NCBI GenBank assembly: GCA_963841125.1
Contig: CAWJBH010000010.1
Coordinates: forward strand, 161,049-225,048
Origin: an uncultured Acidobacteriaceae bacterium
Lineage (GTDB): Bacteria; Acidobacteriota; Terriglobia; Terriglobales; Acidobacteriaceae
Length of the DNA: 64,000 nucleotides
Direction of reading: 5' to 3'
Shown: in pieces, positions 2 to 57,973 of the stretch
How the letters are laid out: each line of letters starts with the position of its first letter
How positions within the stretch are numbered: the first letter of the stretch is position 1
Notes under the pieces: model-generated
What the model was told of the DNA's origin: nothing
Seen by the model: the letters and a program-made list of their open reading frames with translations, nothing else
Databases searched by the model: none
Translations under genes and position numbers: made by a program

Positions 2-1293
2 CAGTATGTTTACCTGCGCGAAGCGCTCGGGCCGCTGTGGGGTTTTCTTTACGGCTGGACGCTCTTTCTGGTGATTCAGACCGGGACGATTGCCGCCGTG
101 GGCGTGGCTTTCGGCAAGTTCCTCGGAGTTTTCTTTCCTGCGGTTTCTTCTTCCAATTGGATTCTGCATCTCTGGAAAGTTCCACCGATTCGCCTGGGGC
201 CGATGGTCTTGGGCAACATGGATGTGGGAATCAATACGCAGAATCTGGTCGCCATCCTGCTCGTGGTTTTCCTTTCGGTGGTGAATATCTTCGGCGTTGA
301 AAACCGGAGCGCTCATCCAGAATGTGTTTACTGCGGCCAAGGTCTCGGCGCTGTTGGGACTGGCGTTGTTCGGCATCGCGCTGGGGCGAAATGCGCAGGC
401 GTTGGCCGCAAATTTCAGCGGACATTTCTGGCGGAACGCGGGACTCGGCGCGCAGCACGCCGTTCAGGTGGGAGTGGGCGGTCCGATGGTGATGGTGGGC
501 ACGCTGACGATTCTGGCGGTGGCGCAGGTGGGATCGTTGTTTTCCGCCGACGCCTGGAACAATGTCACGTTCACCGCGGGTGAAGTAAAAAATCCCAGCC
601 GCAATTTGCCGCTATCTTTGGCACTGGGTACGGGCGTGGTGATCGCGCTTTACATCGCGTGCAACTTTATTTATTTGAACTGCGCTGCCGCTGGATGGAA
701 TGCCGGGCGCAGCAACGATTCTGGGGCGCGGAATCAAGTATGCCGCCGAAGAGCGCGTGGGCACCGCGGTCATGACGCAGATGTTTGGCGCTGCGGGCGG
801 ACTGCTGATGGCGGCAGCGATCCTGATTTCCAGCTTCGGCTGCAATAACGGGCTGATTCTTTCCGGCGCGCGCGTTTACTATGCCATGGCGAAGGACGGC
901 CTGTTCTTCCGCAGCGTTGCCAGGCTGCATCCTATCTATAAGACGCCGGCGGTTTCGCTGATGGTGCAGATGGTGTGGGCGTGCCTGCTCTGCGTCTCGG
1001 GCAGCTACGGGCAGCTTCTCGACTACATTATTTTTGCCGTGCTGGTCTTTTATATTTTGACGATTGTGGGATTGTTTGTGCTGCGGCGGACGCGTCCGGA
1101 TGCCCCACGGCCCTACCGGGCGGTGGGTTATCCGGTGCTGCCGGCAATTTATATTGTGATGGCTTTGTTTATCGATGTCGTACTATTGCGCTACAAACCG
1201 CAATTCACCTGGCCGGGGTTGATTGTGGTGCTGCTGGGCATCCCGGTATATTACGCGTGGTCGAAGAAGTCAGGCAGCGCGAGTGCATCTTAG
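2..1293 (+). CDS. APC-family amino acid permease, 5' end cut by window edge; frame switches near 297 and 678
   Basis: Frame from nt 2 reads QYVYLREALGPLWGFLYGWTLFLVIQTGTIAAV. It continues in ORF 297..848 (KTGALIQNVFTAAKVSALLGL...AGEVKNPSRNLPLSL) and ORF 700..1293 (FGCNNGLILSGARVYYAMAKDGLFF...RRTRPDAPRPYRAVGYP). Multi-TM APC permease pattern. Confidence 0.8.
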
Positions 1294-9566: not shown

Positions 9567-9577
9567 TGGGAACAGGG

Positions 9578-9681
9578 CTGGTCAGTGAACAGTGGTCAGT
9601 GAGCGTAGTAAAGAGCAACGAACCGAGGACGTTCTTACTGATCACTCGCTGCCACTAGACCACTGACCACTGATTCACTGC
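9578..9681. repeat. Inverted GTGGTCA-heptamer arrays in the response-regulator / kinase spacer
   Basis: Left arm ggtcagtgaacagtggtcagtgagcg. Right arm cgctgccactagaccactgaccactgattcactgcc. The right arm overlaps the regulator stop codon, and the protein ends ...NQWSVV. Confidence 0.7.
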
Positions 9682-21696: not shown

Positions 21697-21737
21697 GGGA
21701 CGGCCGCCTCGGCCGTCCAGACGAGCGTAGCCGGCTC
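21697..21737. repeat. GGACGGCCGCC-TCGGCCGTCC hairpin repeat with GAGCG tail (family also at 37698-37791 and 55138-55177)
   Basis: ggggacggccgcctcggccgtccagacgagcgtagccggctc has a 9-bp stem GGACGGCCG / CGGCCGTCC. It lies directly downstream of the glycosyltransferase stop. Confidence 0.7.
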
Positions 21738-26331: not shown

Positions 26332-26431
26332 CAGTGGTTAGTGGTCAGTGGTCAGTGAAATCAGTGGCCAGCAAGGCCTCACTGGCCGATTAGCTACTAC
26401 TACTAATCACTGACCACTAGCCACTGACCAC
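26332..26431. repeat. Inverted GTGGTCA-heptamer arrays filling the AAA+ / VWA spacer
   Basis: Left arm cagtggttagtggtcagtggtcagtga. Right arm tcactgaccactagccactgaccact, a near-perfect complement. Loop of about 47 nt. The element occupies essentially the whole 104-bp gap. Confidence 0.8.
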
Positions 26432-26432
26432 T

Positions 26433-31457: not shown

Positions 31458-31591
31458 CCCGCGGCCGGGCTTCGCCTAGTCCTGACAGCCGAGGCGGCTG
31501 TCTCCTCATGGGCATCGTTGTCTCGCTCTGTATAATCAAGGGTTAAGCCATCCTGCATTGATCCTTGGAGTGTGATCCTTTGAATGCACAT

Positions 31592-36768: not shown

Positions 36769-36940
36769 CAGAAACCAGGATCGACCGGACTCGGAATTTG
36801 TATCAGAGACTCGCACCACGGATTCGCAAGGATTACAGATTGCAACAGGATTCGCACGATTCGTATCAGGATATGCCTTCAGGCACATCGTAACATCCGC
36901 ACATCGATCGCGCCTTCAGGCGCTGCACTTCTCCATTCTC

Positions 36941-37697: not shown

Positions 37698-37791
37698 GAG
37701 GACTGCCGTCCCGGTAGTCTAATCGAGCGAAGCCCGAGGTGTATGTGAGGACAGCCGCCCTCGGCTGTCCAATCGAGCGAAGCTCGACGCC
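37698..37791. repeat. Two tandem copies of the GGACAGCCGCCCTCGGCTGTCC-AATCGAGCGAAGC hairpin repeat
   Basis: gaggactgccgtcccggtagtctaatcgagcgaagcccgagg, then gaggacagccgccctcggctgtccaatcgagcgaagctcgacgcc. Same family as 21697-21737 and 55138-55177. Confidence 0.75.
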
Positions 37792-47174: not shown

Positions 47175-47345
47175 ACGACTGGACATACTGAAGGGCCTTC
47201 GCCCTTTATCCACAGGCCAACCCTGTGACATCCATCACAGCCAGCACCGTCCCCGCCAGCGTACTCTAGCTAAATTCCGGAATCAGGCCTTAGTGTGCCG
47301 ACGGCGGCACGAAACGAAACGAAGACTGTCGTCGCCCGGACCACC

Positions 47346-48894
47346 ATGCTCTACAAGACCCTAAGCGCCGCCGTCTACGGCATCGACGCCAACATTATTC
47401 AGGTCGAAGTCGACTGCTCCGGCATCAAGACCGATCAGGACCACTTCCACACCGTAGGCCTTCCCGACGCCGCCGTGCGCGAGAGCCGTGACCGCGTGCG
47501 CGCCGCACTGAAAAACTGCGGCTACGACATTCCGCCCACGCACATCACCATCAACCTCGCTCCCGCCGACATCAAGAAAGAAGGTTCAGGATTCGATCTC
47601 CCCATGGCGCTAGGGATCGTAGGCGCCTACGGCGGCCTCACACAAAAAGAAATCGACGACTGCCTCTTCATCGGCGAGTTAGTCCCTCGACGGCGGCGTT
47701 CGCGGCATCCGCGGCACCCTCCCCATCGCTCTTGAAGCCCGCACCCGCAAGATTTCAAAGCTGGTAGTTCCCGAAGCCAACGCCCGCGAGGCCGCCATGG
47801 TCGGCGGAGTCGATGTCTATCCGGTCAAGTCGCTGCTGGATGTAATCCACTTCGTAAACTCCGGCAACGGAATCCTCCCGCTGAAAGCCGATGGCGACGC
47901 CTTGCTGAAAGAATCGCAGGAATTCCTCGTAGACTTCAAAGACGTTCGCGGCCAGCAGACCGCCAAGCGCGCCATCGAAATCTCCTGCGCCGGAGGCCAC
48001 AACATCCTCATGATCGGCCCGCCCGGCTCCGGCAAAACCATGCTCGCCAAGCGCATGCCAACTATCTTGCCGCCGCTTACTTTCGAAGAAGCGCTCGAAA
48101 CCACCAAGATTCACAGCGTAGCCGGAGTCCTCGATCCCGGCAGCGGCCTGGTCGGCAAGCGCCCCTATCGTTCGCCGCACCACACCATCTCCGACGCCGG
48201 TCTCATCGGCGGAGGCGTGATCCCGCGCCCCGGCGAAGTCTCGCTGTCCCACAACGGCCTGCTCTTTCTCGACGAACTCCCCGAGTTCCCCCGCAACGTC
48301 CTCGAAGTCCTGCGCCAGCCGCTCGAAGACGGATCAGTCACCATCGCCCGCGCCGCCATGGCGCTAACTTTCCCCGCGCGCTTCATGCTCGCCGCCGCCA
48401 TGAATCCCTGTCCCTGCGGCTTCCGCAACGACCGCACCCGCGAGTGCCAGTGCACCACGCCCATGATCCAGCGCTACATCTCGAAAATTTCCGGCCCGCT
48501 CATGGACCGCATCGACATCCACATCGACGTTCCCGCCGTGAACTACAAAGAAATGCGCTCCACCAACGAACCCGAAAGCTCGGCCAAGATTCGCGAGCGC
48601 GTCATGCGCACCCGCCAAAAGCAACTCGACCGCTTCGCATCGTCCCGCGAAAAAATCTATTGCAACGCGCAAATGTCATCCCGCCACATCCGCACCCACT
48701 GCGAACTCTCCGCCGACTGCGAACGCCTGCTCGAACGCGCCATGACCCAGCAGGGACTAAGCGCCCGCGCCCACGACCGCATCCTCAAAGTCGCCCGCAC
48801 TATCGCCGACATCGAAGAGACTCCCCAGATCGAACCCAAACACATCGCCGAAGCCATCCAGTACCGCTCGCTGGACCGCACCTACTGGACCTGA
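47346..48894 (+). CDS. YifB/ComM-family Mg-chelatase-like ATPase, one frame switch near 47685
   Basis: [23 protein letters not shown]...[14 protein letters not shown]...[11 protein letters not shown]. Then [30 protein letters not shown]-type [19 protein letters not shown], and [15 protein letters not shown]. Confidence 0.9.
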
Positions 48895-49975: not shown

Positions 49976-51229
49976 ATGACCATTGCTGAACTGAAAGAAA
50001 AGAACATTACCGAGCTCACCAAGATCGCAAGGACCTTGGAGCTGCCCGGCGCCAGCGGACTGCGCAAGCAGGATCTCATCTTCAAAATCCTGCAGGCCCA
50101 GAGCGAAAAAGAAGGCCACATCTTCGCCGAAGGCGTCCTCGAAATCCTGCCCGATGGCTACGGTTTCCTCCGCTCCCCCGATTACAACTACCTCCCCGGC
50201 CCCGACGATATCTACGTCTCGCCCTCGCAAATCCGCAAGTTCGACCTGAAAACCGGCGACACCATCAGCGGACAGGTCCGCCCTCCGCACGAAGGCGAAA
50301 AATACTTCGCGCTGGTGAAGATCGAAGCCGTCAACTTCGAATCGCCCGACGAAGCCCGCAACAAGATCCTGTTCGACAACCTCACGCCCCTCTATCCCGC
50401 AGGAGCGCCTCAAGCTCGAAACCACGCGCGAGAACTGCCAGCGCCCGAGTAATGGATTTGCTCACTCCGCTGGGCAAAGGCCAGCGCGGCCTCATCGTCT
50501 CTCCGCCCCGCGCCGGCAAAACCATGCTGCTGCAAAACGTCGCCAACTCGATCACCACCAACCATCCCGAAGTCGTGTTGATGGTTCTCCTGATCGACGA
50601 GCGCCCCGAAGAAGTCACCGACATGCAGCGCTCGGTGAAAGGCGAAGTGATTTCCTCCACCTTCGACGAGCCCGCCGCCCGCCACGTCCAGGTCGCCGAA
50701 ATGGTGATCGAAAAAGCAAAGAGATTAGTCGAGCACAAGCGCGACGTAGTAATCCTGCTCGATTCCATCACGCGCCTGGCCCGCGCCTACAACACCATCG
50801 TTCCGCCCTAGCGGCAAAGTCCTCTCCGGCGGCGTCGATTCCAACGCCCTCCAGCGCCCCAAACGTTTCTTCGGCTCCGCCCGCAACATCGAAGAAGGCG
50901 GCTCGCTCACCATCATCGCCACCGCACTGATCGACACCGGCTCCCGCATGGACGACGTGATCTTCGAAGAATTCAAAGGCACCGGCAACTCCGAAATCAT
51001 CCTCGAGCGCAAGTTGGTCGATAAGCGCGTATTCCCCGCCATCGACATTCAGCGCTCGCGGCACGCGTAAAGAAGAGCTGCTGATCCCCCGCGAAGACCT
51101 GCCGAGATCTGGGTCCTGCGCAAAGTCCTGAACCCGCTCTCCCCAGTAGAAGCCATGGAATTGCTGATCGACAAACTAAGCAAAACCAAATCCAACGGCG
51201 AGTTCCTCTCCAACATGAGCGCCCTGTAA
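49976..51229 (+). CDS. rho: Transcription termination factor Rho, at least 4 frame switches
   Basis: [85 protein letters not shown] (Walker A), [27 protein letters not shown]. After shifts, [35 protein letters not shown] and RVFPAIDI. Confidence 0.93.
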
Positions 51230-51300: not shown

Positions 51301-51325
51301 GACTTCCCCAAGTGTTGAATTTGCT

Positions 51326-51500
51326 CGTGTGGAGCGGACACTCCTGTCCGCTGCTTTTGACGTTGCCTTTGCCCTTGCTTTTGAAGTTGCCCGTGTGGAG
51401 CGGACACTCCTGTCCGTTGCTTTTGACTTTGACTTTGCTTTTGAATTTGAGTCGAATCAAAGCGGCACAACCGTGGAAGAGCGGCGCTTCAGCGCCGCGT
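51326..51500. repeat. Block of hairpin repeats: two AGCGGACA-CTCC-TGTCCGCT units plus one GCGGCGC-TTCA-GCGCCGC unit
   Basis: cgtgtggagcggacactcctgtccgctgcttttgac at 51326 and a near copy at 51391. ccgtggaagagcggcgcttcagcgccgcgtaa ends at 51500. The same modules occur at 51995-52032 and 55993-57390. Confidence 0.8.
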
Positions 51501-51572
51501 AAAGCCCCACAATGAATCAGGGGCTTCAGCCCCAGTGGTCAAATATCCCCCACTTTCCGAACGATTCCCAAA

Positions 51573-51987
51573 GTGTCATACTTCCAGAAGCACAAACCGC
51601 CCGTCTTCGAGGACACCGTGCGACATCTACCGCATTAGCGCTCTCTATCTGCGTACTGTCCGCAATCTCCGCCCCTGCCCAGCAAAACCACACCCCCCAG
51701 GCCCGCCGCCGATGCTGAACCAGGGTCCGCCGCCGTCGACCCAAGGGAAGGTGGGGGCGCCGACCAGGCCCAGCAACTCGGCTCACGACATGGCCAAGAA
51801 AGCCAACCTGCAGCGCCAGGCCTCGCTCAAGGCCGATACCGACAAGCTTCTCAAACTCGCAGAGGAGCTGAAAGATTCCGTCGACAAGTCAAACGAAAAC
51901 GTCCTGTCGGTGGACGTCCTGAAAAAGGCCGAAGAAATCGAAAAACTGGCCCACAGCGTAAAAGACAAAATGAAAGGCCCAAACTAA
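51573..51987 (+). CDS. Small secreted coiled-coil protein (hypothetical), frame switches in the 5' part; start uncertain
   Basis: Well supported C-terminal part MAKKANLQRQASLKADTDKLLKLAEELKDSVDKSNENVLSVDVLKKAEEIEKLAHSVKDKMKGPN. A signal-like ALALSICVLSAISAPAQQ lies in another frame upstream. Confidence 0.45.
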
Positions 51988-52223
51988 AGCAACGCCCGTG
52001 TGGAGCGGACACTCCTGTCCGCTGCCTTTGACTTTGTATTTGATTCTGCTCTTGAGTGTGGGTGAAGCTGAGCCTCAGCCCAAAAGACGAACCGGAAACC
52101 CCACAAAAGTCCAGGTGTACCCCGTGTTTACCCCGTGTACCCCTTGGTAAAGATTTAGAACTAAGCCCAGATACAGAAAAAGCCATCCGTGAAAAACCGG
52201 ATGGCGCTTGAAATAAACCAACC

Positions 52224-54704
52224 CTACGCCCCACTCCGAATCCGCATCCCATAAAACGACCGGTAAACAAAGAAGAACGAAACCAGAAAGAAACCCAAAG
52301 CCAGCACATTGGTGATCATCGGCCCCTGGTTATTGGTAAGCGTAACCGCCAACTCCACCGCCAGCAATCCAAACAAGGTAGTGAACTTGATGACCGGATT
52401 CAAAGCCACCGACGAGGTATCCTTGAACGGATCGCCCACCGTATCGCCAATCACAGTAGCGTCGTGCAGCGGAGTCCCTTTCTGCTTCATCTCCACTTCC
52501 ACAATCTTCTTCGCGTTGTCCCAGGCTGCACCGGCGTCGGCCATAAAGATTGCCTGATAGAGACCGAAGATCGCAATGGAAATCAGATAGCCGATGAAGA
52601 AGAACGGCTCCACGAAGGCGAAAGCCAGCGTGCCGAAGAACACCGCGATAAAGATGTTCAACATCCCCTTCTGCGCATACTTCGTGCAGATCTCGACCAC
52701 CTTCTTGCTGTCCGCCACCGAAGCCTTCACCACGCCATCCAGCTTGATGTTCGCTTTGATGAACTCAACCGCCCGGTAGGCCCCGGTAGTAACCGCCTGC
52801 GTAGAAGCTCCAGTGAACCAGTAAATCATCGCGCCGCCCGTAATCAATCCAAGAAAGAACGGAGCGTGCAATAGCGAGAGCTTGTTTACGTCCGCGGTAA
52901 GGCCGCTGGTGAGCGCCATGATGATGGAAAAAATCATCGTGGTAGCGCCCACCACAGCCGTGCCGATCAACACCGGCTTGGCCGTGGCCTTGAACGTGTT
53001 CCCCGCGCCATCATTGGCCTCGAGCAGGTATTTCGCCCGCTCGAAGTTCACTCCCATGTTGTAATCCTTCTTGATTTCCGCCTCCACGTTCGGCACCGAC
53101 TCGATCAAAGAAAGTTCATACACCGATTGCGCATTGTCGGTAACCGGCCCATAAGAATCCACCGCAATGGTCACCGGACCCATGCCCAGAAATCCAAAAG
53201 CCACCAGCCCAAAAGCAAACACCGCCGGAGCCAGCATCGTCGCCGCCCCCGCCAGTCCCATCGTGCTGAAGTAATAAGCCACCGACATCAGCAGGACCAT
53301 CGACAGCCCCAGGTAGTAGCACGAAAAATTTCCCGCCACAAACCCCGAAAGAATTCCCAGCGACGCCCCGCCTTCCTCCGCCGAAGTAACTACTTCCTTC
53401 ACATGCCGCGATTCCGTCGAAGTAAACGACTTCACCAGCTCCGGAATCAGCGCTCCCGCCAAGCGTTCCGCAGGAAATAATCACCGCCAGTTTCCACCAC
53501 TGAGAAATGTCCCCACCCAGCTCCGGAATAATGAAGTAAGACACCAGAAACGTCAGCCCGATCGAAACAATCGAAGTCAGCCATACCAGCGTCGTAAGCG
53601 GCGTCTCGAAATTCATTTCATTCGCGCTGCCAAACCGCGCCTTCGCGATAGTCGCATTCAGGAAGTACGAAACCGCGCTCGCCACCAGCATCATCACGCG
53701 CATCACAAAAATCCAAACCAGCAACTGCACTTGCACCGTAGGACTCTTCACCCCCAGCAGAATAAAAGTAATCAGCGCCACGCCCGTGACCCCATAAGTC
53801 TCAAACCCGTCCGCCGAAGGCCCCACCGAATCCCCAGCGTTGTCGCCAGTGCAATCGGCAATCACGCCCGGATTCCGCGCGTCGTCTTCCTTGATCTTGA
53901 AAACAATCTTCATCAAGTCCGACCCAATATCGGCAATCTTCGTAAAAATGCCGCCCGCAATCCGCAGCGCCGCCGCCCCTAAAGATTCGCCAATGGCAAA
54001 TCCAATAAAGCAAGGCCCGGCATAATCGCCCGGAACGAACAGTAAAATGATCAGCATGATCAGCAATTCCACGCTGATCAGCATCATGCCAATGCTCATG
54101 CCCGGCCTCCAGCGGAATCTGATAAACCGGAAACGGTTTCCCCGGCAAAGCCGCAAACGCGGTCCGCGAATTCGCAAACGTGTTCACCCGAATGCCAAAC
54201 CACGCCACGCCATAGCTTCCGCCAATCCCCACCAGGCTGAATCCCAAAATAATCGCAACCCGCATCGCTTCCATATGCTGCAGCACGCCAAAATAAAGCA
54301 GAATGATGACCGCAATAAACGCCCACAGCAGCAAAATGAATTTCCCCTGCGTCACCAGATAGGTTTTGCAAGTCTCATAAATCAGCTCTGAAATCTCCCG
54401 CATCGACCGATGCACCGGAAGATTCTTCAGCCGCATATAAATGACCATGCCAAACCCCAGCCCGAAGATGCAGAACAGAATCCCAATCATCAACAGCCGA
54501 TGCCCGTCGATCGCCCACTGCAAAAACGGCACCGACGAAAGGTCAGGAAGTTTCAGCGAAGCCTCGCCGCCGGCCTCGCCAGGGCTGGGCCCAAGCCCGC
54601 CCGGCGCCCAATCCCACGAGCGCCGCCAGTCCCAAAGTCTTCCCCACCACTCCGGACGCCGCGCGGCATCCTTCAAACGCAGCAGTAGCCAGCCAAGTAC
54701 GCAT
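52224..54704 (-). CDS. hppA: Membrane-bound H+-translocating pyrophosphatase, at least 3 frame switches
   Basis: GGAGG 7 nt upstream of the ATG at 54704. GGIFTKIADIGSDLMKIV, DDARNPGVIADCTGDNAGDSVGPSADGFETYG, DSYGPVTDNAQ, NTFKATAKP, AGAAWDNAKK, and GDTVGDPFKDTSSVALNPVIKF. Confidence 0.93.
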
Positions 54705-55029
54705 AATGAGTCCTCCAAATGATTTCGGTTTTTTCAGGAATACTGAAGCGGTGTTGTGTGATTGTCATCCTGAGCAAGCGTTCCGGCGACGCCGCGAAGG
54801 ATCTGAGCGAGCCGCGCGAAGTGTCGCGTTCGTTGCGACACAATAATCGCGCGTTTGGCTCGCTTCCCTGAATTCCGAACACGCTTCCACCGCAAAACAA
54901 GAACGGAGTGTTGGAGCTTGGCCGCGTCGGAGGTAAAGCGCCCGAGCCGGAAAATAAACTCCGCCCGGACACACGACCTCAAAACAGGCGTTTATAACAC
55001 TTTCGCAACAAACGGGTCAATCGGGGAAC

Positions 55030-55292
55030 CAGTGGTCAGTGGTCAGTGGTCAGTGGACAGAAAAAACAGGCAGCAGTATCAAGCACCAGAGATCCTAAAT
55101 GTGGGAACAGGATGTGGGGAATGGGAACAGGATGTGGGGACAGCCGCCCTCAGCCGTCCGGCCGAGCAAAGCTCGCCGTTTTGTGACTTACCCTCCCAAC
55201 CCCGAAATCCACCACGGAGATCTGCTCCGCCCCCCAGCGCTTTTCACTGACCACTGACCACTGACCACTGACCACTAATCACTGACCACTGC
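55030..55292. repeat. Composite element: (GTGGTCA)n array, 185-bp interior, inverted (TGACCAC)n array
   Basis: Left cagtggtcagtggtcagtggtcagtggacag (55030-55060). Right cactgaccactgaccactgaccactgaccactaatcactgaccact (55245-55292). The interior holds a 19-bp direct repeat tgggaacaggatgtgggga x2 (55102-55140) and a GGACAGCCGCC hairpin (55138-55177). Confidence 0.8.
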
Positions 55293-55750
55293 CTACCCCA
55301 GCCACTCCCAAGCCTCCCGATACCCCTCCCACCGCGGATTCCGGCTCTTCAAATCCGGAAAAAATCTCAAACTCTTCACCCCTACAAAAGCCGCGATCGG
55401 CAGCAGATACCAGACTTCTTTCTCTTCCGCAATCACATGCGCCGCCAGCACATCAATATCGCTCGCCGTATAAGTTTTCTTCCCCTCGCCCCGCGTAGAA
55501 TAAACCGGCTGCACATCATATCCCCCGCGATACAACCGCCCCGTACCCTTAACCTGCACCCGCAAAACCGCCCGCCCGGCCGCGCCCACACGATAAAGTC
55601 ACACTTCTCGCTGTCTCCCCAAGGCACCGCCAACCCAAACCCCAACGCCTGCGCCCGCACCAAAAACGCCCCCTGCGACAACTCCCCCATCCGCTTAGGA
55701 TTCCCCCAAGCCCGCTCCCACCACCGCCCATCCGGATCCTCCACCGCCAT
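55293..55750 (-). CDS. Small stand-alone PD-(D/E)XK nuclease (group-I-intron-endonuclease-like family), one frame switch near 55575; start uncertain
   Basis: NPKRMGELSQGAFLVRAQALGFGLAVPWGDSEKCDFIVW joins VLRVQVKGTGRLYRGGYDVQ...YTASDIDVLAAHVIAEEKEVWYLLPIAAF...LRFFP. D...(Q/E)VK nuclease core. Confidence 0.6.
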
Positions 55751-55992
55751 AATCCAGGAAACAAATCCCGGCACCCCTCCATCCCCGCCGCCATCCGCTC
55801 GCCGCCATTCCAACGCATCGACATTCCGAATCCTCCCTGCACCCATGACCAACATGAAAAGCATAAGCCCTTCCCATTTCGGACCCATGTGACATCCAAC
55901 CATCCCAACCCTGTGGAAATAACCAAGAATCGTGTGGAGGATGTGTGGAAGCGGGCGCACCCGCCCGCTGTTCGTTGCCTTCGATCGCCTTG

Positions 55993-57495
55993 CCCGTGTG
56001 GAGCGGACACTCCTGTCCGCTGCTTTTGACGTTGATTTTGACTCTGCCTTTTGACTTTGATCCAGACTGCAGGGGAGCGAAGATTCGTATCAGCGTATGC
56101 CTTCAGGCATACCGAAAGCCAACACCACCGTGGAAGAGCGGCGCTTCAGCGCCGCGCAAAGCCACCCTAAATTAACCCTTGTCATTCCGAACAGGGCCAA
56201 AGGCCCGGTGAGGAACCTGCTGTTGACTTTCGCCGCCACCCCGCACCCGTGTAGAACGGACACTCCTGTCGTTGCCTTTGACGTTGATTTTGCCTTCGAC
56301 TGCGACCGCACCCTCCTAGACGGGGTGCCCCATTTCTCGCGTCCTTTGCGAGAAGTGGGAACCACGGATGCCCGCAGCGCCGTTCTTGAAGTTGATGCTG
56401 CCTTTGACCTGGAAAACTCGTATCAGGATATGCCTTCACGCATACCGAACCCCAACACCCCCGCGGAAGAGCAGCGCTTCAGCGCCGCATAAAGACACCC
56501 TAAATTAACCTTTGTCATTCCGAACAGGGCCGCAAGGCCCGGTGAGGAACCTGCTGTTGACCTTCGCCACCACCGCGCCGCCCGCGTGGAACGGACACTC
56601 CGTCAGTTGCTTTTGACGTTGATTCAGGATTCGTATCAGCGTATGCCTTCAGGCATACCGAAAGCCAACACCACCGTGGAGAGCGGCGCTTCAGCGCCGC
56701 GCAAAGCCACCCTAAATTAACCCTTGTCATTCCGAAAAGGGCCAAAGGCCCAGTGAGGAACCTGCTGTGATGTTCGCCGCCACCCGCACCCGTGTAGAAC
56801 GGACACTCCTGTCGTTACCTTTGACGTTGATTTTGCCTTCGACTGCGACCGCACCCTCCTAGACGGGGTGCCCCATTTCTCGCGTCCTTTGCGAAAAGTG
56901 GGAACCACGGATGCCCGCAGCGCCGTTCTTGAAGTTGATGCTGCCTTTGACCTGGAAAACTCGTATCAGGATATGCCTTCACGCATACCGAACCCCAACA
57001 CCCCCGCGGAAGAGCAGCGCTTCAGCGCCGCGTAAGGCCCACCAAACCCCAGCCGCAAAGCGGCGAAAGAATGCAGCCCACGGCGCAAGCCGTGGGTAAA
57101 GCAGAAAAAGAGAAACGAGCCCCGCAGGGGCGGCAGAGAAATCGCCCGTGTGGAACGGACACTCCTGTCCATTACCCTTGACGTTGACTTTGAATTCGAC
57201 CGCACCCTGATCAGAAGAGGGTGCCCCATCTTTCGCGTCTTTTGCGAAAGGTGGGAACCACGGAAGCCCGCAGCGCCGTTCTTGATGTTGATGTCGCTTT
57301 TGACCTTGAACAATTCGTATCAGGGTATGCCTTCAGGCATATCGAAACCCGGCACCACCGTGGAAGAGCGGCGCTTCAGCGCCGCGTAAGGCCCACCAAA
57401 CCCTAGCCGCAAAGCGGCGAAAGAATGCAGCCCACGGCGCAAGCCGTGGGTAAAGAGAAAAGGGAACAACCAAGTCCCGTAGGGACGGAAGAGAC
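55993..57495. repeat. 1.5-kb ORF-free mosaic of nested and tandem hairpin repeats
   Basis: Near-identical direct copies at 56082-56488 and 56628-57031 (offset 546 to 543 nt, about ten differences by eye). A diverged third module lies at 57145-57390. gcccaccaaaccc.agccgcaaagcggcgaaagaatgcagcccacggcgcaagccgtgggtaaag is duplicated at 57036 and 57389. All listed ORFs here translate repeats. Confidence 0.85.
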
Positions 57496-57496
57496 G

Positions 57497-57973
57497 CTAG
57501 GCATCGTCATCCTCAGCGTCCTCAGGATTCGGCACTCCGCTCGTGTCCTCTCTCCCAGTCAGCATCAGGGCCTGCATCTTGTTTATCAGCTTAGCCGCTC
57601 CACGGTCCAGGCGTGCTTTCACAAACTTGGGCTGCGAACTGTTCGCTGTGGGCATAGATGAAATCAAGATGGCCTCTACTTCATCCCGATGAGAGGAGTC
57701 CTTGATGTGAAAGGCGGAGAAGTAGTTCCAAAAGTTATACCGTCGAGCATTAGGCTTTAGCGCGTGATTACGAAGGCGTTTAAGGAGTGTCGTACCTGTC
57801 TTGCCGATGTAATAAGGCACGTCGTCACGATAGAGAACGTACACTCCTGGCTCGTCGAGATTCTTCTCGAGAATAGGTTTCCCATCCTTCATGTGAAACA
57901 ATGCTCGAGGCCACATTCTGAGAAACTGGCTAGCTTTGAATTTTGGCTTCATCGGAAAACCCTCCATTCGCAC
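57497..57973 (-). CDS. Small GIY-YIG nuclease-superfamily protein, intact, low G+C
   Basis: GVYVLYRDDVPYYIGKTGTTLLKRLRNH (GIY...YIG...R) and downstream RDEVEAILISS (Glu). Acidic tail. Two 60-nt lines I counted (57661-57780) are 45-48% G+C. Confidence 0.65.
   Translation of the reverse strand: MRMEGFPMKPKFKASQFLRMWPRALFHMKDGKPILEKNLDEPGVYVLYRDDVPYYIGKTGTTLLKRLRNHALKPNARRYNFWNYFSAFHIKDSSHRDEVEAILISSMPTANSSQPKFVKARLDRGAAKLINKMQALMLTGREDTSGVPNPEDAEDDDA

Follow-up and report, generated by a model that had tools for sequence, protein, structure and literature searches.

A probable REP/BIME-type mosaic of co-oriented hairpin modules in a Terriglobia intergenic gap

What kind of DNA fills a hairpin-rich intergenic gap between the genes for a PD-(D/E)XK endonuclease and a small GIY-YIG-domain protein in an acidobacterium? 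We addressed this question in a 64-kb window (the whole stretch of 64,000 nt that was analysed, from an uncultured Acidobacteriaceae bacterium). An earlier note on this DNA had read the gap as a non-coding chain of ordered hairpin modules starting at 55993. The region reads as described, but its left limit does not stand, since the non-coding stretch spans 55942-57496 and includes an extra A-type hairpin at 55950-55969. The 131-aa ORF at 56097-56492 had no Pfam match and the array copies differ from one another in single-base indels that would disrupt a reading frame; the region is non-coding as claimed, and we discarded a coding or pseudogene reading. The array had no blastn match among PLSDB plasmids. 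The flanking genes are:

55299-55765, - strand: PD-(D/E)XK endonuclease gene (PDDEXK_5), in two frames; orthologues are annotated PF11645
57497-57973, - strand: gene for a small GIY-YIG-domain protein (Pfam PF01541; annotated form 151 aa)

Alignment with MAFFT resolved the array into five co-linear composite units, placed head-to-tail and every one on the + strand, in the layout A-B-C-D, A-E-B-C-D, A-B-C-D, A-E-B-C-F, A-E-B-C-F plus the one extra hairpin. All seven module types of the earlier note were recovered, bearing out its description of ordered hairpin modules:

55942-55992, + strand: additional REP variant of the A type (A*), where the cluster begins on its left side by hairpin census; head TGTGGA, hairpin AGCGGGCG-CACC-CGCCCGCT at 55950-55969 and a short T/G-rich tail
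55993-56245, + strand: unit U1 (A B C D); module A is CCCGTGTGG + AGCGGACA-CTCC-TGTCCGCT with its hairpin at 56002-56021, then a tail with TTG every 6 nt; B from 56083, C from 56128, D at 56176-56222
56246-56580, + strand: unit U2 (A' E B C D), A' being a decayed REP; module E is GCACCC..GGGTGC, then GGGGTGCCCC + CCCATTTCTCGC..GCGAGAAGTGGG
56581-56788, + strand: unit U3 (A'' B C D), A'' being a decayed REP
56789-57143, + strand: unit U4 (A' E B C F)
57144-57496, + strand: unit U5 (A E B C F), adjoining the GIY-YIG stop codon

The B-C-D part of U3 is 94.6% identical to that of U1, and the A'..C part of U4 is 98% identical to U2. U5, which confirms the diverged third copy reported before, shares 82-85% identity with U2 and U4 and appears to be the oldest copy. 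Tandem Repeats Finder (TRF) detected a 354-nt period across 56789-57461. The A core matched the window five times at ≤3 mismatches versus 0.00 expected, and six A-type copies lie in the array region, with three more elsewhere in the 64 kb. Because whole units, including their linkers, are repeated without unique spacers, the locus is not a CRISPR array, in agreement with the earlier note; among the proteins of five flanking genes (51.5-60.2 kb), none had a Cas-family Pfam match. A MITE was likewise rejected, as the only inverted repeats are matches between palindromic B cores of different units, and neither terminal inverted repeats nor a target-site duplication surround a unit.

The array bears the mark of a recent segmental duplication:

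56082-56488, + strand: copy 1 of the duplication
56628-57031, + strand: copy 2 of the duplication

The two copies are identical in 398 of 407 alignment columns (97.8%; 6 mismatches and 3 gap columns) at a period of 543-546 nt, and a 65-nt tail at 57036 recurs at 57389 with 95.5% identity, so that the tandem duplication, its recent amplification and the duplicated tail all hold as first described. Similarity continues through module borders and linkers, and for this reason segmental duplication would explain the growth of the array better than the repeated insertion implied by a hotspot for REP-like elements, as the earlier note had suggested. We propose that unequal recombination, or slippage during replication, between repeated modules made the array grow and shrink; the most recent such event would be a 543-nt duplication, with the two segments listed above as its core of about 405 nt.

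Alternatively, the composite unit A-(E)-B-C-(g/D)-F may be a non-autonomous mobile element, with the array built by repeated site-specific insertion of whole units side by side rather than by recombination. The strict co-orientation and order of modules at unrelated loci, the behavior of B-C as one conserved 83-nt block and the presence or absence of clusters between close relatives are all consistent with this model, as is the insertion of IS200/IS605-type elements, whose Y1 enzymes act in a single orientation beside specific short sequences (PMC3333891). Against it, neither terminal inverted repeats nor target duplications bound the unit, module order has exceptions (E comes before A in L134 and L046 and after A in the array here), and different internal modules are missing from different units. 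Moreover, the youngest event covers parts of two units and not one whole, which is a signature of unequal crossover. We consider whole-unit insertion quite improbable and retain growth by segmental duplication.

Comparison of copy number among related genomes, which the earlier note had proposed, identified one unit at the same site upstream of PDDEXK_5 in L121, three in L134 and four in L140. Unit content varies freely among close relatives, and single A modules are present or absent between relatives that are 90% identical. The occurrence of the array at the same site with 1, 3 or 4 units argues that it is real, old and unstable, and the ancestral state at this site may have been a single A-C-F unit between convergent genes. 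These findings also bear on the concern that repeat expansion or mis-joining during assembly created the tandem structure. Frameshifts interrupt several genes of the window (rho, comM, hppA and PDDEXK_5, the last recovered as two tblastn HSPs in different frames and thus frameshifted or affected by a sequencing indel), suggesting an indel-prone assembly; however, substitutions distinguish the copies (6 in the youngest pair, about 15% in older pairs), and multi-unit arrays recur at this site in relatives whose metagenome assemblies are independent, with L140 and L135 in agreement. An artefact of this kind is highly improbable. We also dismissed a specific association of the array with the GIY-YIG gene: the 324 homologues of the GIY-YIG protein lie in varied neighborhoods, and the closest relative, L140, has the array without GIY-YIG. 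PDDEXK_5 often adjoins arrays and RayT genes, but REPs are common in every intergenic gap, so that we take this adjacency as an observation and not as a specific link.

By the published definition, a REP is a GC-rich imperfect palindrome, 20-40 nt long, with a GT(A/G)G head on its immediate 5' side (PMC2817692). Module A has this arrangement, with a GT(A/G)G head directly abutting a GC-rich palindrome whose stem is AGCGGACA/TGTCCGCT; the form in the window is GTGG + AGCGGACA-CTCC-TGTCCGCT, and GTAG-headed variants adjoin RayT in L077. The exact 22-nt A core was found in more than 119 Terriglobia contig stretches among the matches listed. In related genomes, A-type hairpins flank RayT-type Y1 transposase genes, within about 200 nt of the gene, at six of six distinct loci, comprising L077 and L085 as well as four (L146, L152, L158 and L160) that were retrieved via protein similarity alone, independently of A. 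The transposase homologues carry the JGI name 'REP element-mobilizing transposase RayT', and the A stems at these loci carry genome-specific compensatory variants. A cognate RayT gene flanked by REPs is therefore found in the relatives, while tblastn detected neither a RayT nor a TIRYT gene in the 64-kb window, which counts against the REP/BIME reading; that the source organism encodes a cognate RayT/TIRYT enzyme is therefore our inference. Judged by its sequence, module A is a genuine REP, which lends support to the REP-like reading in the earlier note. The hairpin families would then have spread around the genome through RayT/TIRYT activity, although we know of no enzyme or mechanism for modules B, C, D, g and F. 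The 22-mer, identical across species and forming convergent pairs behind genes, had raised the idea of a DNA uptake sequence, which we dropped after the RayT association emerged.

The single modules reported elsewhere in the window (at 36856, 51324, 51390, 51463 and 51995) are real:

36856-36925, + strand: solitary B, then a C-like hairpin GCGCC-TTCA-GGCGC
51324-51535, + strand: small A-A-C-g cluster downstream of rho, comprising A (51324 and 51390), C (51463) and the g hairpin GGGGC-TTCA-GCCCC (51516-51529)
51995-52047, + strand: solitary A module, 8 nt past the stop codon of the + strand gene 51535-51987

The solitary A module at 51995-52047 is missing from the same site in the 90%-identical relative L140, in which the A* stem variant also occurs after the rho stop codon.

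Classical BIMEs alternate in orientation, and REPINs are inverted doublets. The array resembles the REPs and BIMEs of Escherichia coli and other Gammaproteobacteria in several respects. Its palindromes are short, imperfect and GC-rich, with a GT(A/G)G head; they are apparently multi-copy and probably extragenic, join other short conserved motifs in a mosaic open to tandem amplification, lie at gene 3' ends and, in relatives, are associated with a REP-flanked cognate RayT gene. It differs in its host, an acidobacterium, and in its REPs, which are all direct (+ strand) whereas those of BIMEs alternate. It also includes at least six further hairpin families in polar order, and its units of 210-355 nt contrast with the short linkers of BIMEs. 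The exact 22-nt core is common to many species, in contrast to classical REPs, which are for the most part confined to single species. As in the REPIN/RAYT system of Pseudomonas fluorescens (Bertels & Rainey 2011, PMC3116915), the REPs are tied to a single-copy-type RayT gene, and A modules elsewhere in Terriglobia often form convergent doublets 33-173 nt apart. Unlike REPINs, the array is without inverted doublets, the doublets are unevenly spaced and a TTG-periodic tail serves as the spacer in place of a conserved sequence.

A second link to transposases comes from module E, which matches inverted hairpins around Acidobacteria-type TIRYT transposase genes and shares the 'GGGTGCCCC + hairpin' structure of the repeats beside these genes; the closest described system is the TIRtrons/TIRYT of Acidobacteria (Di Nocera et al. 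2013, PMC3733652). The TIRYT-like genes of L067 and L040 have inverted repeats of this type on either side:

L067, 371-406 (+ strand) and 1109-1145 (- strand): E-type repeats
L040, 6051-6085 and 6675-6710: E-type repeats

Together with L161, where an E-type hairpin lies only downstream of the TIRYT-like gene and an IS lies upstream, the match to TIRtrons rests on three loci. In contrast to a TIRtron, E is single and internal to a larger unit, not paired around a gene, and it has no exact match to the published TIR consensus GGGGWSAS (PMC3733652).

Module F, in turn, corresponds to an annotated RNA family, Rfam RF01687 (Acido-Lenti-1), with two matches above the gathering threshold of 37 bits:

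57051-57096, - strand: Acido-Lenti-1 match in module F of U4 (48.7 bits)
57405-57450, - strand: Acido-Lenti-1 match in module F of U5 (48.7 bits)
57474-57486, - strand: terminator-like hairpin GTCCC-TAC-GGGAC, then a T-rich run, 10 nt past the GIY-YIG stop codon

Like Acido-Lenti-1 (Weinberg et al. 2010, PMC2864571), F has two covarying hairpins, and the original alignment of that family includes tandem copies 200 nt apart (PMC2864571). Unlike a free-standing sRNA, F closes the mosaic as its terminal module, both in this array and in the 13 other copies that we examined. It is antisense to A/B/C in every case and usually comes after a small terminator-like hairpin; an equivalent of GTCCC-TAC-GGGAC precedes most Acido-Lenti-1 copies at other loci. 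Placement of the Rfam-strand F copies after a co-oriented gene is mixed (about half of the copies). The terminal, antisense setting of F behind a small hairpin would suit a repeat-element module more than an sRNA gene that stands alone. The earlier note's view that the array is not a known IS thus needs qualification: it is a REP-like mosaic, but not one without known relatives, given the identity of F with RF01687, the A modules flanking RayT and the similarity of E to TIRYT hairpins. By the same three links, its own counter-proposal, that the modules are fragments of a known mobile element, proved partly right.

The Acido-Lenti-1 matches also invite a reading of the array as a non-coding RNA locus, that is, one long transcript with structure or small-RNA genes in tandem (Acido-Lenti-1 among them) whose hairpins act at the RNA level, for instance in protein binding or sponging. 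In keeping with this, both matches exceed the threshold of a family with covarying stems, the + strand of U5 folds far better than shuffles (z = -6.5), and hairpin stems favor G:T over A:C on the A strand (42:21). The loops (TTCA) and unpaired flanks (TTCGTATCAG) of B and C are nearly invariant between species, and the array is kept at the same site in several of them. However, a sigma-70-like promoter is absent inside the array (the one site in 3.5 kb is on the - strand, within the GIY-YIG gene, and not above shuffles), and the A-tail/B-head junction is without a -35/-10 pair; a promoter composed of the A tail (TTGAC) and the B head (TATCAG) was excluded by its wrong spacing in all 21 junctions examined. 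Furthermore, the same modules are found singly at the 3' ends of many unrelated genes, unit content is free to differ between close relatives, folding and G:T counts favor the strand opposite to the Rfam strand of F, and no second Rfam family matched the array even at E up to 5. A CsrA-type sponge RNA on the - strand, conceivable from GGA in the reverse-read A and E loops, was discarded as well, as A is sense-oriented behind genes and the G:T bias favors the + strand. The long structured RNA locus considered in the earlier note is therefore unlikely, and the case for a dedicated structured RNA is weak.

Across about 1 Mb of other genomes, unlike neighboring modules are co-oriented in 73 cases and anti-oriented in 2, and their order is polar (A→C 19:2, B→C 12:0, A→B 7:1, D→A 5:1). 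By this pattern, the families B, C, D, g and F, which are dispersed hairpins as well, accompany A with fixed polarity and in largely fixed order. Such strict polarity and order are not expected from simple REP biology and count against the REP/BIME reading. Pneumococcal BOX elements (boxA-boxB(n)-boxC) are modular, polar intergenic repeats with three module types and a variable number of internal modules, and to our knowledge they have no transposase link; they would share the modular polar layout of the array but are unrelated in sequence.

The position of the modules relative to genes would suit a role at transcript ends. Of 106 placed A copies, 66 lie behind a co-oriented ORF (median distance 31 nt); the ORF calls behind these statistics are crude, and 30 of 166 copies lie inside called ORFs. 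Neighboring A modules are convergent in 23 cases and divergent in 2. The 54.6-58.1 kb region contains 11 terminator-like sites versus 4.3±2.2 in shuffles. With a hairpin energy of -13.9 kcal/mol and a tail (GCUUUUGAC) of only 3-4 consecutive U residues, module A was not called as a terminator by a simple consensus scan, and within the array the A modules are antisense to both flanking genes. Nevertheless, the array hairpins probably serve as terminators. The A hairpin and its U-rich tail would end or stabilise transcripts of a co-oriented upstream gene, the hairpin at the F end would do likewise for a gene arriving on the other strand, and the cluster may thereby act as a redundant two-way terminator or insulator rather than as a dedicated gene.

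That several species retain an array at this one site could be a sign of functional selection, which counts against the REP/BIME reading. On a further reading, the mosaic would be more than REP debris, and the polar composite A-(E)-B-C-(g/D)-F would be kept as an array at a conserved site upstream of the PD-(D/E)XK gene for a function there, as a multi-hairpin two-way terminator or insulator or as a structured transcript, which we regard as unlikely. If the composite element were functional, the Acido-Lenti-1 'sRNA' would be the terminal module of an element and not a gene, and the near-invariant TTCA loops and TTCGTATCAG flanks of B and C would be putative protein-binding sites.

Taken together, we think it likely that the locus is a REP/BIME-type mosaic of short co-oriented hairpin modules filling an intergenic gap in Terriglobia (Acidobacteriota), seeded by transposase-linked hairpins and enlarged by unequal recombination. 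As selfish or regulatory intergenic DNA it belongs to a known kind, with a layout that is unusual; it is not a new locus type and reveals no new class of genetic system. REPs and RayT have been characterised almost only in Gammaproteobacteria, and here a clear REP-RayT pairing appears in Terriglobia, which are abundant but poorly studied soil bacteria. Unlike in classical BIMEs and REPINs, the REPs are joined with at least six further hairpin families in strictly polar mosaics. An orphan Rfam family, Acido-Lenti-1, may be re-read as a repeat-element module, and the modules would account for many spurious 'hypothetical proteins' (…GQECPLHT, …EERRFSAA, …REKWGTP) in the annotation of Acidobacteria.

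Multiple alignment resolved the array at ~55.9-57.5 kb into five composite units arranged head to tail, all on the + strand, where A to F and g denote hairpin module types and A' and A'' decayed forms of A. It is bounded by the stop codon of a GIY-YIG gene on one side and the upstream side of a PDDEXK_5 gene on the other; genes for a prolyl oligopeptidase and an H+-pyrophosphatase lie beyond these.

Composite units of the array and adjoining genes (window positions)
55299-55765, - strand: PD-(D/E)XK endonuclease gene (PDDEXK_5), spread over two frames
55993-56245, + strand: unit U1, A B C D
56246-56580, + strand: unit U2, A' E B C D
56581-56788, + strand: unit U3, A'' B C D
56789-57143, + strand: unit U4, A' E B C F
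57144-57496, + strand: unit U5, A E B C F
57497-57973, - strand: small GIY-YIG-domain gene

The earlier note had described this stretch as a non-coding hairpin mosaic, and sequence inspection agreed, with direct-repeat and tandem-repeat tools giving the same families. Its location stood, but the cluster begins ~50 nt to the left of the reported edge because a sixth A-type hairpin lies at 55950-55969 (AGCGGGCG-CACC-CGCCCGCT). The proposed duplication of 56082-56488 at 56628-57031 was recovered at 398/407 identical positions (6 substitutions and 3 gap columns), the diverged third copy corresponds to U5 (82-85% identical to U2 and U4), and the two copies of the 65-nt tail are 95.5% identical. The A core matched five times versus 0 expected by chance, and terminator-like sites numbered 11 versus 4.3±2.2 in shuffles. 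The folding z-score of U5 was -6.5 for the + strand and -2.1 for the - strand; a dedicated RNA gene, put forward previously as a long structured RNA locus, is a weak alternative. The longest ORF (131 aa) had no Pfam match, and single-base differences in length between the repeat copies (indels) would disrupt a reading frame, bearing out the absence of a credible ORF, although these indels should not be over-read because several genes in the window are frameshifted.

Frameshifts interrupt comM, rho, hppA and PDDEXK_5, each of which occupies two or three reading frames (47295-48894, 49976-51229, 52224-54718 and 55299-55765, respectively), which points to an indel-prone, possibly long-read, assembly or to unusually many pseudogenes. 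The small GIY-YIG and PDDEXK_5 genes are recurrently adjacent in loci from other genomes (L121 10001-11636, L127 402-1991, L159 100-1350, L160 1-2576), recurrently adjoin genes of toxin-antitoxin type (BrnA, PIN) and at two loci adjoin the gene for RayT, the REP-associated Y1 transposase. The region looks like a variable, REP-rich island of nuclease-type genes.

The corresponding site was then compared among relatives.

Module content at the corresponding site in related loci
L121-L126 (GIY-YIG 91% aa, DNA ~74%): GIY-YIG, F-like, C-like, A, BrnA, PDDEXK_5
L140 and independent contig L135 (flanking genes 90% nt): [A D][A E C D][A E B C D][A F]
L134/L141 (PDDEXK_5 81.7% nt): [B C][E A B C][E A C F] beside PDDEXK_5
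L144, L138 (PDDEXK_5 ~80% nt): other module combinations

A single unit with convergent genes on either side occupies the site in L121-L126, and the L140/L135 array lies between the oligopeptidase gene and PDDEXK_5, the GIY-YIG gene being absent. Because relatives carry arrays of differing units at this site, sequence comparison indicates that the array is real, predates these species splits and varies both in how many units it has and in what they contain. Polymorphism extends to solitary modules: in L140, the A at 51995 and the A-A-C-g cluster that follows rho are missing or have been replaced. Separately, L116 (3040-3500, partly N-masked) holds four or more [C + g] units in tandem, repeating every ~105 nt, so such amplification also occurs outside the window.

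Module A is a canonical REP: GTGG (GTAG in some variants) directly abuts its stem, as in the definition of a REP as a GT(A/G)G head plus a GC-rich palindrome (PMC2817692). Over 154 copies, its conserved part reads cGTGT-GGAGCGGACACTCCTGTCCGCT-GCCTTTGAC, with a tail carrying TTG every 6 nt (103, 75, 52, 37, 25 and 13 copies at offsets 4, 10, 16, 22, 28 and 34). The exact 22-mer GGAGCGGACACTCCTGTCCGCT occurred in more than 119 stretches among the matches listed from the species-representative genome collection, nearly all in MAGs labelled Acidobacteriaceae, Terriglobales, Sulfotelmatobacter or Acidoferrum. Exact A cores were also seen in contigs assigned to other phyla or classed as viral, namely L018, L093 (Dormiibacterota MAG), L044 (Limisphaerales MAG), L103 (Bryobacteraceae MAG) and L001 (IMG/VR contig), with C and D modules besides in L093 and L001; these are likely mis-binned Terriglobia DNA, horizontal spread being the alternative.

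Using acidobacterial RayT-like proteins (PMC3733652 supplement) as tblastn queries against the collected loci, including the window, we found four Y1 transposase genes in related loci and none in the 64-kb window. The gene in L077 has a triplet of A-type hairpins on each side, several with a GTAG head, and that in L085 is similarly bracketed. As both loci had been chosen through A, we countered the selection bias with a search on the L085 protein, which yielded 2480 matches, many of which JGI names 'REP element-mobilizing transposase RayT'. Four homologues (69-93% identity) were retrieved on protein identity alone (L146, L152, L158, L160), and in 4/4 A-type hairpins lay on both sides within ~200 nt of the RayT gene, with genome-specific compensatory stem variants (AGCGGACA/TGTCCGCT, GTCGGACA/TGTCCGAC, GACGGACA/TGTCCGTC). 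Pfam Y1_Tnp scored these proteins at 20-23 bits, just under the cut-off of 23. The A-flanked RayT gene of L146 has a group II intron reverse transcriptase beside it (1-1293).

Modules C, D, E, F and, seldom, B each recurred as separate short matches in ~1 Mb fetched around A 22-mer loci. By its sequence, module E matches hairpins flanking genes for TIRYT, the Acidobacteria-type RayT-like transposase, at three loci, a weaker link than that between A and RayT. Inverted GGGGTGCCCC + CACTTCTCG…CGAGAAGTGGG elements flank the L067 gene, at 92 nt on the upstream side and 35 nt on the downstream side, a degraded TIRYT-type gene in L040 sits between inverted GGGTGCCCC + GTCCAAGC…GCTTGGGC elements, and L161, retrieved via protein, has an E-type element downstream and an IS on the upstream side. 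An E-type hairpin also lies in frame within the TIRYT gene (L067 800-836, L161 ~1300-1340), encoding DPTSRK(T/A)REVGHP in a loop where other family members have a gap; the transposase seems to have its own repeat built in as a conserved insertion.

Module F is Rfam Acido-Lenti-1 (RF01687), found twice on the - strand (48.7 bits versus a threshold of 37); no other Rfam family matched in the array region, even at E up to 5. Weinberg et al. 2010 (PMC2864571) listed 89 representatives without an assigned function; their alignment has Lentisphaera copies in tandem, 200 nt apart, and they noted a location near group II introns in Lentisphaerae. We suggest that Acido-Lenti-1 belongs to this repeat system as one of its modules.

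Further hairpin families were observed in the window. A D-like element at 54750-54810, upstream of the pyrophosphatase gene (GTCATCCTGAGC…GAAGGATCTGAGC), shares the module D design of a variable inner hairpin within conserved outer arms. A second REP-like family with a GTG(G/A) head (GGACAGCC-GCCCTC-GGCTGTCC) occurs at the following sites, at two of which a CGAGC-GAA-GCTCG hairpin comes next:
21698-21718
31484-31502, reverse
37743-37789
55132-55178
Arrays of the heptamers (CAGTGGT)n and (CACTGAC)n, mutual reverse complements at 55030-55060 and 55245-55291, enclose a 185-nt segment that includes a REP-like hairpin. The whole resembles a MITE with inverted ends composed of heptamers, and there is a second copy at 26.3 kb (further coordinates 26332-26432 and 9576-9608).

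Module order proved polar in non-redundant loci outside the window. Unlike neighbours within 300 nt were co-oriented in 73 cases versus 2 anti-oriented, with A→C 19:2, B→C 12:0, A→B 7:1 and D→A 5:1; E preceded A in 6 cases and followed it in 3. C lay downstream of the nearest A in matching orientation in 18/18 cases within 600 nt, and A-A neighbours were convergent (23 versus 2 divergent). B-C forms one 83-nt block with nearly invariant loops (TTCA) and flank (TTCGTATCAG) and one compensatory stem change. The Rfam strand of Acido-Lenti-1 is antisense to A-, B- or C-type modules sharing its cluster, of which it forms the downstream end in most cases. A small GC hairpin and a T-rich run usually come before it.

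On crude ORF calls, 66/106 placed A copies lay behind a co-oriented ORF, the median distance being 31 nt, as opposed to 166 nt when the upstream ORF was on the opposite strand. The window A at 51995 begins 8 nt past a stop codon, the L121 A 2 nt past the BrnA stop, and the array hairpin at 57474-57486 (- strand) lies 10 nt past the GIY-YIG stop. Stem G:T versus A:C on the A strand was 42:21. A was not called by a consensus terminator scan, and its U-tract is short. Placement and stem bias are compatible with a role at transcript 3' ends without proving one.

The REP-like, non-CRISPR reading of the earlier note held, and modules of the array have known relatives, A being a REP and F Acido-Lenti-1. 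A CRISPR array, a MITE and a coding remnant were all rejected for the array. The cluster resembles a BIME but lacks the alternating orientation of one, and is therefore a BIME-like variant. RayT and TIRYT enzymes would spread the hairpins, which may serve as transcript ends or insulators, and the array could alter via unequal recombination or slippage, as supported by the youngest duplication, which covers portions of two units. The locus works like REP/RayT systems, with module A a member; such elements are already known, and the array is a variant layout of them.
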